In this document: positions 11,193 through 12,662 of the stretch, in pieces
Layout: each line of letters begins with the position of its first letter
Position numbering within the stretch: the first letter of the stretch is position 1
From: Oleiphilaceae bacterium
Lineage (GTDB): Bacteria > Pseudomonadota > Gammaproteobacteria > Pseudomonadales > Oleiphilaceae
Length of the DNA stretch: 38,337 nt
Direction of reading: 5' to 3'
NCBI GenBank assembly: GCA_041589495.1
Contig: JBFHVM010000001.1
Coordinates: forward strand, 1 to 38,337
The notes under the pieces: generated by a model
Databases searched by the model: none
What the model was told of the DNA's origin: nothing
Seen by the model: only the letters and a program-made list of their open reading frames with translations
Program-made: the position numbers and the translations under genes

Positions 11193-12662
11193 ATGCAGCG
11201 CGCTTTGGTTGTCCTAATATCTGTAGTCATATTCAACACTTCAGAAGTGAGGTTGCAAATCAAAGGGCATCCATACATTGTCGCTACCGGGACGACATCG
11301 GCATTTTTGGGTGACGAGCGCTTGTTGCGCGAGTTTGTCATTGGTGATCAGGCGCAGCGTGAGCGTATTGCGCATGGTCAAAACGCCATTCTTTACTTGA
11401 TCAATGATAGTTATGACGGCTTGCGTGAGGGGCAGTGTCGCCTGGCTGTGAATAAAGACGAAGGACTGTTGGAAAAATACCGAGAGTTCTTGGGGCGTCC
11501 TATTGCCGAAATCCCAGATCCTTTTGATTGTCACGCTAGTTTTGCCGAACATTTTATCGCAGCCTTACTCAAACGACTGCGTTCTCTCGATATTCATCCG
11601 GTGGTGATGGATAGCTATCGCGGATACAAAAGTGGCGCCTATCAGGCATACGTTGAGCTGGTCTTTAATCGTTACCAGGAAATACAGGCGCACCTGGCCG
11701 CATGTTATCCCCAGTTCAGGCTGCACAACTTGTTTCGGGTGCAGTGTCATTCCTGTCAGAGGATCGATGAAACCGATATCACAGAGGTAACTGAAGATAC
11801 TGTCGCGTTCAGGTGCAAGGCTTGTGGCTTGGAAGGGCCCCAGCCGCGAGCTGAGATCAAAGGTAAATTAAGCTGGAAGCTTGATTGCGCGGCACGCTGG
11901 AATATCTACGGTATTCATGCCGAAGCCTTCTCCAAATCACACTGCAGTGAATTAGGGAGTTACGATATTTCAGGGTTTATCTCCAAAGAATACTTTGAAG
12001 GTAACGTACCTGTGGCACTTCGCTATGGTGAGCTAAAACTCGACAACGAACTATCCTACCGCTTACTGGACATACTGCCACCAACGATGTTCAAGCAACT
12101 ATTACTCGAAAACCCTGAGCGTGACCTGGAACTGACAAAGGCTTCGATAGAGCATTTTTGTCGCCGTACCGAAGTTGTGCCAGGCATGAGTTACGTGGAT
12201 TTTGTTAAACGGGAATTACCGTTGCTGGCCATCAGTGATCGTTTGCCGGGCGAAGCGGCTTTTTTGCACAACAGTCGTTTCGATACGCAGGAACTTTTGT
12301 ATTATGGTAACCGTTTCTCGGGCTACTATTTTCATCAGGAATACGATATTTCACTGGCGGGGGCTGATGCCATTACCACAGTAAGCAGAGATGTAGCTCA
12401 GGCGGCACAAAGCATATTGCATTATACACTCGAGGTGCGACGCAATGAGGACTGGAGCGAAGAGCAAAAGCAGAGTCATTTGGCCGAGTATTTAAAAATC
12501 AGGCAGAGTATCCCCGGGGTGTTTCCGTATTTGCGCAAAATCTTTGGTCAGCAACAGGGGCCGGGCATTGCCTCGTTATTAATTTCACTGCCACTGGACT
12601 ATCTGAACGTGATCCGGATGGCGGTCGGGTTTTACGTTAGCCAGAAGGCTGGCGAAGTGTAA
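11193..12662 (+). CDS. class I lysyl-tRNA synthetase-like protein with degenerate catalytic signatures (putative pseudo-synthetase)
   Basis: Collinear blocks with archaeal-type LysRS-1: [29 protein letters not shown], a CxxC...CxxC zinc ribbon (CHSC...CKAC), [27 protein letters not shown] and GSYD. The HIGH position reads FLGD, and the KMSKS loop seems absent after RYGELKLDN. The start codon is uncertain. Confidence 0.6.
   Translation: [489 protein letters not shown]

Follow-up and report, generated by a model that had tools for sequence, protein, structure and literature searches.

What does a nearly full-length class I lysyl-tRNA synthetase (LysRS) do in a bacterium, if both of its ATP-binding signatures are missing and if its gene is the first in an operon for signal transduction? 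This question is raised by a 38,337-nucleotide stretch of DNA from an Oleiphilaceae bacterium (contig JBFHVM010000001.1; this whole stretch is termed the window in the following), in which positions 11193-12662 encode a LysRS-1-like product that we name LysRSl and whose residues we number according to the 489-aa open reading frame (ORF) of the window. Our analysis points to a repurposed synthetase paralogue that has lost the ATP chemistry, has kept the whole synthetase body, and belongs to an ancient clade found across phyla. As to the function, we tentatively propose, with somewhat less than even confidence, that LysRSl is a non-adenylating regulatory subunit that binds lysine or tRNA-Lys and that works together with ALDHl, a partner of the aldehyde dehydrogenase (ALDH) superfamily, as a cytoplasmic input to cyclic di-GMP (c-di-GMP) signalling.

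LysRSl is homologous to class I LysRS (LysRS-1), and this can be seen at the levels of sequence, profile and predicted structure. The Pfam profile PF01921 (tRNA-synt_1f) is matched with E = 7.3e-46 and 157.2 bits (gathering cutoff 27), the match being confined to residues 26-285 and to profile positions 22-279 of 360, and the NCBIfam model TIGR00467 (lysS_arch) is matched with E = 5e-41 and 140.8 bits, which is under its equivalog cutoff of 147.55; with PRK00750, the score is 57 bits against 648. The sole significant sequence match in the PDB is 1IRX, the LysRS-1 of P. horikoshii, for the single sequence and for a profile of 49 family members alike, and hhalign aligns the family with six canonical full-length LysRS-1 at 99.9% probability. 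An AlphaFold2 (AF2) model calculated from the family alignment (predicted local distance difference test, pLDDT, 91.2; predicted template modelling score, pTM, 0.85) retrieves 1IRX as the top Foldseek match (E = 7e-23, TM score 0.61, about 520 alignment columns), with GluRS and CysRS being about 14 orders of magnitude weaker, and the predicted fold is of the full-length LysRS-1 type, including the zinc ribbon and the C-terminal helical domain. Because sequence, profile and fold matches all lead to 1IRX, LysRSl can be regarded as collinear with LysRS-1 through to the C-terminal helical domain. A sequence-only reading of the window had already recognized a near full-length, collinear LysRS-1 paralogue in the 489-aa ORF, from blocks of the translated sequence and a CxxC...CxxC zinc ribbon; all of these are present in the translation, and PF01921, TIGR00467, hhalign and Foldseek agree with that assignment, both models being matched significantly. 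The shared blocks include G.PI.E.PDP, GKL.W, RW, E.(F) and a C-terminal GP...LL, in addition to the zinc ribbon and the full fold. The same reading held that LysRSl is not the housekeeping LysRS, and this is supported by the score below the TIGR00467 cutoff, by the position in a signalling operon, and by class II lysS genes near three genes of a sister group (see below). The start codon is ambiguous (ATG 11193, GTG 11247 or TTG 11253); the gene caller chose 11253, which gives the 469-aa version in the protein database (P0001), and the conserved region starts near 11268.

The decisive differences to LysRS-1 concern the two signatures for ATP binding, which we compared column by column in alignments with 13-24 genuine LysRS-1, the motif consensus below being taken from alignments with 13 and 16 of them, while conservation within the family was calculated from 116 members. 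At the HIGH region, genuine LysRS-1 read SGI(T/S)PSGxxH(I/V/L)GNFRE, whereas the LysRSl family reads ATG(F/T)T(T/S)AxLGDER(T/S/L)LREF, and the HIGH histidine, which is invariant in 24 genuine LysRS-1, is absent in all 116 family members. The sequence-only reading had placed FLGD at this site, and while the loss of HIGH is confirmed, the register depends on the method: hhalign sets F/Y-L-G opposite H-x-G and treats DER as an insertion, but HMMER and MAFFT place the HxGN position at D41-E42-R43-L44, three residues 3'-ward of F38-L39-G40-D41. In the structural model, the first helix begins at residue 22 of P0001, and this speaks for an alignment without gaps; under neither of the two registers is there a His or Asn at the HxGN position of LysRSl. 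At the KMSKS region, genuine LysRS-1 have KGxGGK(M/L/I/F)SSSxGNxxT, whereas the family has SR(E/D)LSx, with 12-20 residues deleted, so that the loop is indeed gone, as had been suspected, and neither motif is intact. The KMSKS-spanning deletion of this size is found in all three HIGH-less subfamilies that will be described below.

These losses are embedded in a wider remodelling. Five positions that are invariant in LysRS-1 are swapped in the LysRSl family (W to N71, P to R83, W to C232, E to Y239, G to F246), and these replacements are as conserved as the original residues; H114, H120 and R128 are new family invariants, and eight residues are inserted after DPL. Around the adenylate site, residues are systematically exchanged, and these exchanges are conserved. 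At the same time, much of LysRS-1 is retained: G33, T35, R46, E47, D72, D75, the four zinc-coordinating Cys, W228, R235, W236, E244, H250 and Y278 are conserved in both groups, and also a DxxD block is conserved in the family. E47, W228, H250 and Y278 align with Glu41, Trp218, His240 and Tyr268 of 1IRX and are at least 95% conserved in the 116 members of the cassette family; the four 1IRX residues presumably line the lysine pocket (literature on 1IRX and on the LysRS-1 of B. burgdorferi). If so, this conservation would agree with the possibility raised in the sequence-only reading, namely that the pocket for the amino acid persists and the ATP site does not. The sequence-only reading spoke of erased motifs, and here only the loss itself stands, as different residues, at least 95% conserved in the 116 members, have taken their place. 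Judged from this conservation, the motif losses are replacements under selection and not a simple erasure.

Could LysRSl nevertheless be a second LysRS that still works, with non-canonical residues standing in for HIGH and KMSKS? Such an enzyme would have the full-length fold and a Pfam score well above the gathering cutoff, relaxed KMSKS variants do occur in some DPANN LysRS-1 of our alignment, and JGI names several members (P0012, P0013, P0018, P0025 and others) "lysyl-tRNA synthetase class I", whereas they are hypothetical proteins at NCBI. Still, we consider this very improbable, as both ATP-binding signatures are missing, one of them by a physical deletion of its loop, as an acidic D-E stands at the place of the phosphate-binding His and Gly, as five more invariant positions are replaced, and as the sub-cutoff TIGR00467 score, the signalling operon and the canonical lysS beside sister-group members all point elsewhere. 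In the reading that we favour, the exchange of HIGH for DER and the loss of the KMSKS loop leave LysRSl unable to form lysyl-adenylate. Since LysRSl fails the HIGH, the KMSKS and the equivalog tests, it should not be filed as lysine-tRNA ligase, and the JGI labels would wrongly credit genomes with a second LysRS.

The motif loss alone could also be taken as a sign of a decaying pseudogene or of a chance ORF. Against this stand an intact reading frame, a confident AF2 model, conservation of at least 90% at about 100 positions of the family, and more than 140 homologues that a word-indexed search detected at 40-69% identity, nearly all of them unnamed or "hypothetical". The scaffold is under purifying selection, and together with the synteny across phyla this conservation rules out decay or chance, to which we assign practically no probability. 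Among one genome per species of 185,579 species, LysRSl is present at about 24 loci, all in metagenome-assembled genomes (MAGs), with many carriers in Eisenbacteria and others in Krumholzibacteriia, Nitrospirota, Competibacteraceae, Oleiphilaceae and Armatimonadota; the family spans at least five phyla, and all carriers found are uncultured. The closest relative, with 69% identity, is from another Oleiphilaceae MAG; as cultured carriers are lacking, the window and this relative are the most tractable gammaproteobacterial version for experiments. When we scanned 1.84 billion cluster representatives with a hidden Markov model (HMM), LysRSl stood out as a separate family that comprises a few dozen clusters at 50% identity, and canonical LysRS-1 followed with a step down in score and with matches only to the catalytic half of the profile. 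The intermediate scorers of this exhaustive scan are not canonical synthetases, but more divergent HIGH-less and KMSKS-less proteins, and we found no intermediates between canonical LysRS-1 and the HIGH-less clade, as all candidates (L031-L036, P0342, P0345, P0360, P0390, P0425) turned out to be canonical. A dedicated NCBIfam model was not found for the family, nor did the literature that we searched contain a description of the family or its operon, and neither LysRSl nor ALDHl gave any match to anti-phage defence systems in PADLOC.

The genetic context of LysRSl is that of signalling and not of translation. In the window, LysRSl is followed by a lipoprotein of the SBP_bac_3 type of substrate-binding proteins (SBP), the divergent ALDHl, a HAMP-containing histidine kinase and a REC-GAF-GGDEF-EAL response regulator, with gene spacings of 72, -1, 31 and 62 bp and without any convincing terminator inside the unit; genes for permeases or ATPases of ATP-binding cassette (ABC) transporters are absent from these five genes. 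In the kinase, the H-box AHEINTP and the N-box are about 200 residues apart, which is about 100 above the usual; the insert has no Pfam match, is partly conserved across the cassette orthologues and might be the place where a cytoplasmic partner docks. In a tblastn comparison of the operon proteins with all fetched loci, which include 26 family loci, 23 have the order LysRSl-SBP-ALDHl-kinase-regulator, and ALDHl adjoins LysRSl in 24, so that the linkage to SBP and ALDH genes, which the sequence-only reading had put up for a survey, is strong. Identities are highest for the SBP (60-82%, across phyla), followed by 39-69% for LysRSl, 37-53% for ALDHl and 38-77% for the kinase. While the input genes are constant, the output varies: GGDEF-EAL regulators are found in Proteobacteria and Nitrospirota, and REC-GAF-HisKA-HATPase or REC-HATPase proteins in Eisenbacteria, with the GAF domain recurring among the outputs. 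In one otherwise standard cassette, a natural fusion joins LysRSl to an EAL domain (P0019, 763 aa, L037 416-2707); its EAL, DDFGTG and EGxE motifs are recognizable by eye, and in this locus a small DUF6399 gene lies between the ALDH and kinase genes. Deviating loci are L001 and L008, where LysRSl stands alone without the cassette, and L022, with a porin, LysRSl, ALDHl, a TonB-dependent receptor and a different SBP. In about 15 loci, though not in the window, a secreted beta-rich protein of about 250 aa is encoded directly upstream of LysRSl, and its similarity to TorF-family putative porins (TIGR02001) is weak (E = 6e-7, below cutoff).

Domain fusions such as LysRSl-EAL usually mark physical or regulatory coupling, and this fusion, the constant inputs with variable outputs, and the recurrent GAF domain favour the view that LysRSl is a regulatory subunit. 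LysRSl would keep the Rossmann core, the zinc ribbon, the residues aligned with the putative lysine pocket and the C-terminal helical domain of the anticodon-binding type as a scaffold, with which it may sense the status of lysine and/or tRNA-Lys as a non-catalytic binding subunit. It would act with an obligate, predicted-competent ALDH partner, and the pair would pass its state to nucleotide second-messenger enzymes. The complete cassette may then work as a switch with two inputs: in an extracellular arm, an amino-acid-type ligand would be bound by the lipoprotein SBP and signalled via the histidine kinase to the REC-GAF-GGDEF-EAL regulator, which would become phosphorylated, and in an intracellular arm, the LysRSl/ALDHl pair would modulate the GAF-GGDEF-EAL regulator or the kinase. 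Homology, motif losses, purifying selection, synteny, the fusion and the catalytic residues of the ALDH are observed, whereas the nature of the bound ligand, the direction of the information flow and the role of the ALDH in this scheme are what we infer.

Known systems exist for parts of this logic. SBP genes that are associated with a membrane histidine kinase and not with ABC transporter genes are known from LuxP-LuxQ and TorT-TorS, but these systems have no cytoplasmic synthetase-like or ALDH-like parts, and the SBP of the cassette is of the SBP_bac_3 amino-acid type. Inactive synthetase-derived modules that are coupled to a kinase or an enzyme are the HisRS-like domain of GCN2, which senses uncharged tRNA, and HisZ, the regulatory subunit of ATP-phosphoribosyltransferase, and the logic of our proposal is similar; as both derive from class II HisRS and have no ALDH partner, the likeness is a functional analogy and not a membership. 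LysRSl itself has the characteristics of a pseudoenzyme, since the catalytic signatures are lost while the scaffold is under purifying selection, and since it is genetically coupled to signalling enzymes. A pattern opposite to that of LysRSl is seen in EpmA/PoxA/GenX, a class II LysRS paralogue that lysylates the elongation factor EF-P, and in GluQRS/YadB, a class I GluRS paralogue that modifies tRNA-Asp: these enzymes for non-canonical acceptors, the known paralogues of the lysine branch and of the GluRS/LysRS-1 branch, keep the ATP motifs and adenylation, but lost the anticodon-binding domain. To our knowledge, none of the characterized paralogues of class I LysRS acts outside translation. 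A sensor function of LysRSl would give bacteria a counterpart to GCN2, where a disarmed synthetase reads the status of amino acid or tRNA, and would feed into decisions on biofilm formation and motility.

The more divergent proteins from the HMM scan fall into two sister groups, which we term S1 (P0314, P0320 and, by architecture, L026 and L027) and S2 (P0327, P0328, P0330, P0332, P0334, P0346, P0352). In S1, HIGH is replaced by YLGD(G/E)R, and the site of His240 reads EPFTKxY; S2, which is from AT-rich, small-genome lineages, has ADNQLREF and FEPFxxNY at these two places. The HIGH replacement, the 8-residue insertion after DPL, the W to C exchange in DCAxRW and the KMSKS-loop deletion are common to the cassette family, S1 and S2 and are not found in LysRS-1, and with these shared derived characters the three form one ancient clade. 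In S1, a GAF-GGDEF-HD-GYP gene lies directly upstream of LysRSl in three loci (L026, L038, L044), with 64-65% identity between loci, and the ALDH is encoded on the other strand in L027 and L038 and is partial in L026; in L027, a transporter gene of the major facilitator superfamily (MFS) is found beside the ALDH. An unannotated 213-aa gene follows LysRSl in L038 and L039. In all four S2 loci, LysRSl is immediately followed by the ALDH, often with overlapping genes, and a Pol-beta-type nucleotidyltransferase is present as well; a metallo-beta-lactamase (MBL)-fold hydrolase with Apyc1-like Pfam matches is found in two of them. A zinc alcohol dehydrogenase is fused to the ALDH in L042 (765 aa) and adjacent in L045. 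Three of the four S2 loci have a canonical class II lysS within 3-6 kb, with two copies scoring 628 and 646 bits with TIGR00499 (cutoff 428) and the third being 40-42% identical to those, and at least S2 lineages thus use class II LysRS for translation. The vicinity of lysS also speaks for the connection to lysine and tRNA-Lys that the regulatory subunit would have. The S2 contigs (L040, L041, L042/L043, L045) have 35-42% G+C content (GC), and the surroundings of the pair in L042 include radical-SAM, Creatininase/DUF362 and glycosyltransferase genes. Taken across all these loci, the gene arrangements indicate that the LysRSl-ALDH pair is the invariant unit, to which signalling genes have been added in bacteria in two independent architectures.

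That the pair stands beside a putative messenger synthase and hydrolase in all three architectures (GGDEF-EAL, GGDEF-HD-GYP, or nucleotidyltransferase with MBL-fold hydrolase) permits also the reverse direction of information flow. The remodelled ATP pocket (DER, R83, Y239, F246, K248) might bind a nucleotide messenger, which would be c-di-GMP in the cassette family and in S1, whereas in S2 it would be what the Pol-beta nucleotidyltransferase produces; LysRSl could thereby control the ALDH or lysine-related metabolism as an effector that acts downstream of the neighbouring cyclases and phosphodiesterases. The fact that the conserved replacements cluster at adenylate-site positions would fit. 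We regard such a receptor as improbable, since the replacement motif varies by subfamily (DER, DGR, ADNQ), since the output in Eisenbacteria is a kinase and not a cyclase, since LysRSl occupies the N-terminus of the EAL fusion, where an input domain and not a receptor is typically found, and since no known c-di-GMP-binding motif is recognizable in LysRSl; moreover, the assignment of the nucleotidyltransferase and MBL-fold proteins is speculative, these having weak or no PADLOC matches.

The ALDH partner matches Pfam Aldedh over its full length. In the 24 cassette orthologues, the catalytic Cys302 (GETCTS/GQTCTS) and Asn169 (VPQNA) are invariant, and the partners in S1 and S2 keep them as well. 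In place of Glu268, the cassette ALDHl invariably has an Asp (LLDGQGNG), whereas three of the sister-group ALDHs have Glu and one has Asp, and this position is therefore always acidic. Further positions differ in the cassette ALDHl (Arg for Lys192, Gln for Glu195, Gly for Glu399), and there is a unique conserved C-terminus (NEDPSIESMFEPWGGY). ALDHl shares the Aldedh domain, Cys302 and Asn169 with hydrolytic NAD(P)+-dependent ALDHs for succinate semialdehyde, lactaldehyde, amino aldehydes or betaine aldehyde, and like them has an acidic residue at position 268, but differs from them by E268D, K192R, E195Q, E399G, its own C-terminus, and scores below every named equivalog cutoff for ALDHs in NCBIfam (about 100 versus about 450-900 bits; best 115.8 bits versus 615). 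With the family profile, the closest solved relatives are hydrolytic, aldehyde-oxidizing enzymes. We also considered that E268D reflects a loss of hydrolysis and that ALDHl is a Glu268-less reductase; the Glu in sister-group partners and the top rank of hydrolytic ALDHs speak against this. The 207 ALDHl homologues have 450-499 aa, are unfused and are co-distributed with LysRSl on the same contigs, and no LysRSl-ALDH fusion was found among them or among the 150 listed profile matches. By its residues, ALDHl looks like a competent dehydrogenase.

A catalytic partner in all three subfamilies, with overlapping genes in S2, invites an alternative in which the pair is an enzyme system that depends on tRNA and not on ATP. 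LysRSl would present Lys-tRNA-Lys, generated by class II LysRS, to ALDHl, whereupon Cys302 or C232 would take over the lysyl group as thioester, and a reduction or transfer of this thioester would yield a lysine-derived aldehyde, alcohol or conjugate that could be read by the GAF domain or, after export, by the SBP and kinase. Both halves of this chemistry have precedents: cyclodipeptide synthases are class I synthetase-like enzymes without HIGH and KMSKS that use aminoacyl-tRNAs, and in glutamyl-tRNA reductase a Cys attacks the aminoacyl-tRNA, which is followed by reduction with NADPH. It should be noted that cyclodipeptide synthases, which are likewise Rossmann-fold relatives, derive from TyrRS/TrpRS, have about 230-300 aa and no anticodon-binding domain, whereas LysRSl has the full architecture and is unrelated to them in sequence. 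Such a route would make use of the conserved ALDH Cys and Asn and of the tRNA-type architecture of LysRSl, and the W to C exchange in DCAxRW, common to all three subfamilies, would provide the second cysteine; the Gln at position 195 would permit the use of NADP(H). It would also agree with the lysS near three S2 loci, with the AdhE-like ALDH-alcohol dehydrogenase fusion in L042 and the adjacent alcohol dehydrogenase in L045, and with the MFS transporter in L027. Nevertheless, the nearest ALDH relatives are hydrolytic and neither reductases nor CoA-acylating enzymes, the acidic general-base position is kept, which favours aldehyde-to-acid chemistry, most cassettes have no exporter, and the LysRSl-EAL fusion and the variable outputs suit a regulatory subunit better. 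Nor are tRNA genes associated with the cassettes: no tRNA genes or Rfam elements were found near them in the window or in 25 of 27 other loci scanned, and the tRNA-Trp (L021 15934-16018) and tRNA-Asp (L029 10936-11026) that ARAGORN predicted lie inside regulator and ALDH coding regions and are probably false positives. On balance, we consider the tRNA-dependent pair rather unlikely, yet worth keeping in mind as the foremost alternative. Marginally less likely still is its full version, a new ATP-independent system that consumes Lys-tRNA-Lys and whose product is a dedicated signal for the GAF-containing c-di-GMP enzymes, with the SBP and kinase as an additional receptor in the five-gene cassette. 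If true, this would be a new tRNA-dependent pathway, and indeed a route of signal synthesis that is new to science and extends from DPANN/CPR-like lineages (CPR, candidate phyla radiation) to Proteobacteria.

What weighs against LysRSl as a non-catalytic regulatory subunit that senses lysine or tRNA-Lys? A pure sensor does not explain why the ALDH partner has an intact Cys302, Asn169 and acidic position 268. The S2 pair, which has no recognizable signalling genes and stands beside an alcohol dehydrogenase in L042 and L045, looks metabolic. The many new invariant polar residues of LysRSl (D41, E42, R43, R83, H114, H120, R128, C232) could equally well mark a new catalytic site. In S1 and S2, conservation does not extend to the counterparts of His240 and Tyr268, and lysine binding may therefore be specific to the cassette subfamily. 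Finally, conservation is lower in the C-terminal than in the catalytic domain (mean consensus frequency 0.43 versus 0.65), and the charge of the domain, which we considered as a proxy for tRNA binding, speaks neither for nor against such binding. Despite these points, a regulatory subunit remains the function that we favour; the rest of the probability we leave to functions outside the readings discussed here.

Table 1. Positions of the LysRSl gene, its sites, the cassette genes and other features. Coordinates refer to the window unless a locus is named.
Feature	Position	Strand	Remarks
LysRSl (LysRS-1-like paralogue)	11193..12662	+	maximal ORF 489 aa; likely start 11253 (469 aa)
HIGH site, D41-E42-R43-L44 opposite HxGN	11313..11324	+	HMMER/MAFFT register; DER at least 97% conserved in the family
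Alternative HIGH register, F38-L39-G40 opposite HxG	11304-11312	+	hhalign
Four-Cys zinc ribbon, C185, C188, C208, C211	11745..11825	+	family-invariant, common to genuine LysRS-1
W228 (=1IRX W218)/H250 (=H240) block	11874..11942	+	W228 and H250 kept; W to C232, E to Y239, G to F246 replaced
Site of deleted KMSKS loop, L283-D-N-E-L-S-Y-R290	12039..12062	+	genuine LysRS-1 have 12-20 extra residues including K[MLIF]SSS
SBP_bac_3 lipoprotein	12735..13553	+	LLGAC lipobox; amino-acid-binding type
ALDHl	13553..14989	+	divergent ALDH-superfamily partner
Membrane histidine kinase	15021..16880	+	hydrophobic segment, periplasmic domain of ~140 aa, hydrophobic segment, HAMP, H-box AHEINTP, insert, HATPase_c
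Insert of histidine kinase	15930-16500	+	between H-box and N-box
Response regulator REC-GAF-GGDEF-EAL	16943..19252	+	output by c-di-GMP synthesis/hydrolysis
Upstream beta-rich protein	L004 7119-7910; L006 7227-7979; L022 1378-2367; ~12 other loci		Eisenbacteria, Krumholzibacteriia, Nitrospirota
GAF-GGDEF-HD-GYP genes	L026 1650-4328; L038 5322-7952; L044 2-1024		upstream of S1 LysRSl
Sel1-repeat protein; second SBP_bac_3; PhzF-family protein	1191-2945; 3057-3824; 3852-4712		upstream of ast genes
astC, astA, astA, astD, astB	4844-10990	+	directly upstream of cassette
astE and amino-acid ABC transporter	24434-28663	-	~13 kb downstream of cassette
Apparently decayed two-component genes	31433-33728	-	GAF fragments 31433-31744 and 31794-32000; HTH fragment 32722-32880; HATPase_c and receiver ORF 32892-33728
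Nmad3 gene	35207-36058	+	
Unannotated ORF	34761-35297	-	5' end overlapped by Nmad3 gene

The cassette lies in the window between parts of the arginine succinyltransferase pathway, which is split: astC, two astA genes, astD and astB precede the cassette directly, whereas astE lies downstream, together with an amino-acid ABC transporter (SBP, two permeases and an ATPase). In between are the cassette, a LysR regulator, an FRG-domain protein and a DUF4382 protein. With a GC of about 0.49, the cassette is slightly poorer in G+C than the ast genes (about 0.53). As astD-astB is found upstream of the cassette also in the Oleiphilaceae relative (L007), a functional link to arginine catabolism was considered, but it was rejected, since other loci have unrelated flanks, for which reason the adjacency to astB is probably a lineage-specific placement.

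Upstream of the ast genes, a 584-aa Sel1-repeat protein, a second, weaker SBP_bac_3 match and a PhzF-family protein are encoded. Further downstream in the window, two-component genes have apparently decayed: GAF fragments are spread over two short ORFs, and a stop codon lies between a LuxR/GerE-type helix-turn-helix (HTH) fragment and an ORF with HATPase_c and receiver domains; between 30.4 and 32.9 kb, no ORF exceeds 143 aa. Beyond this region, a gene for a protein with the nucleotide-modification-associated domain 3 (Nmad3) shares about 90 nt with an unannotated ORF of the opposite strand, at the 5' end of the latter, and this pair is followed by a TetR regulator and a SAM-dependent methyltransferase.

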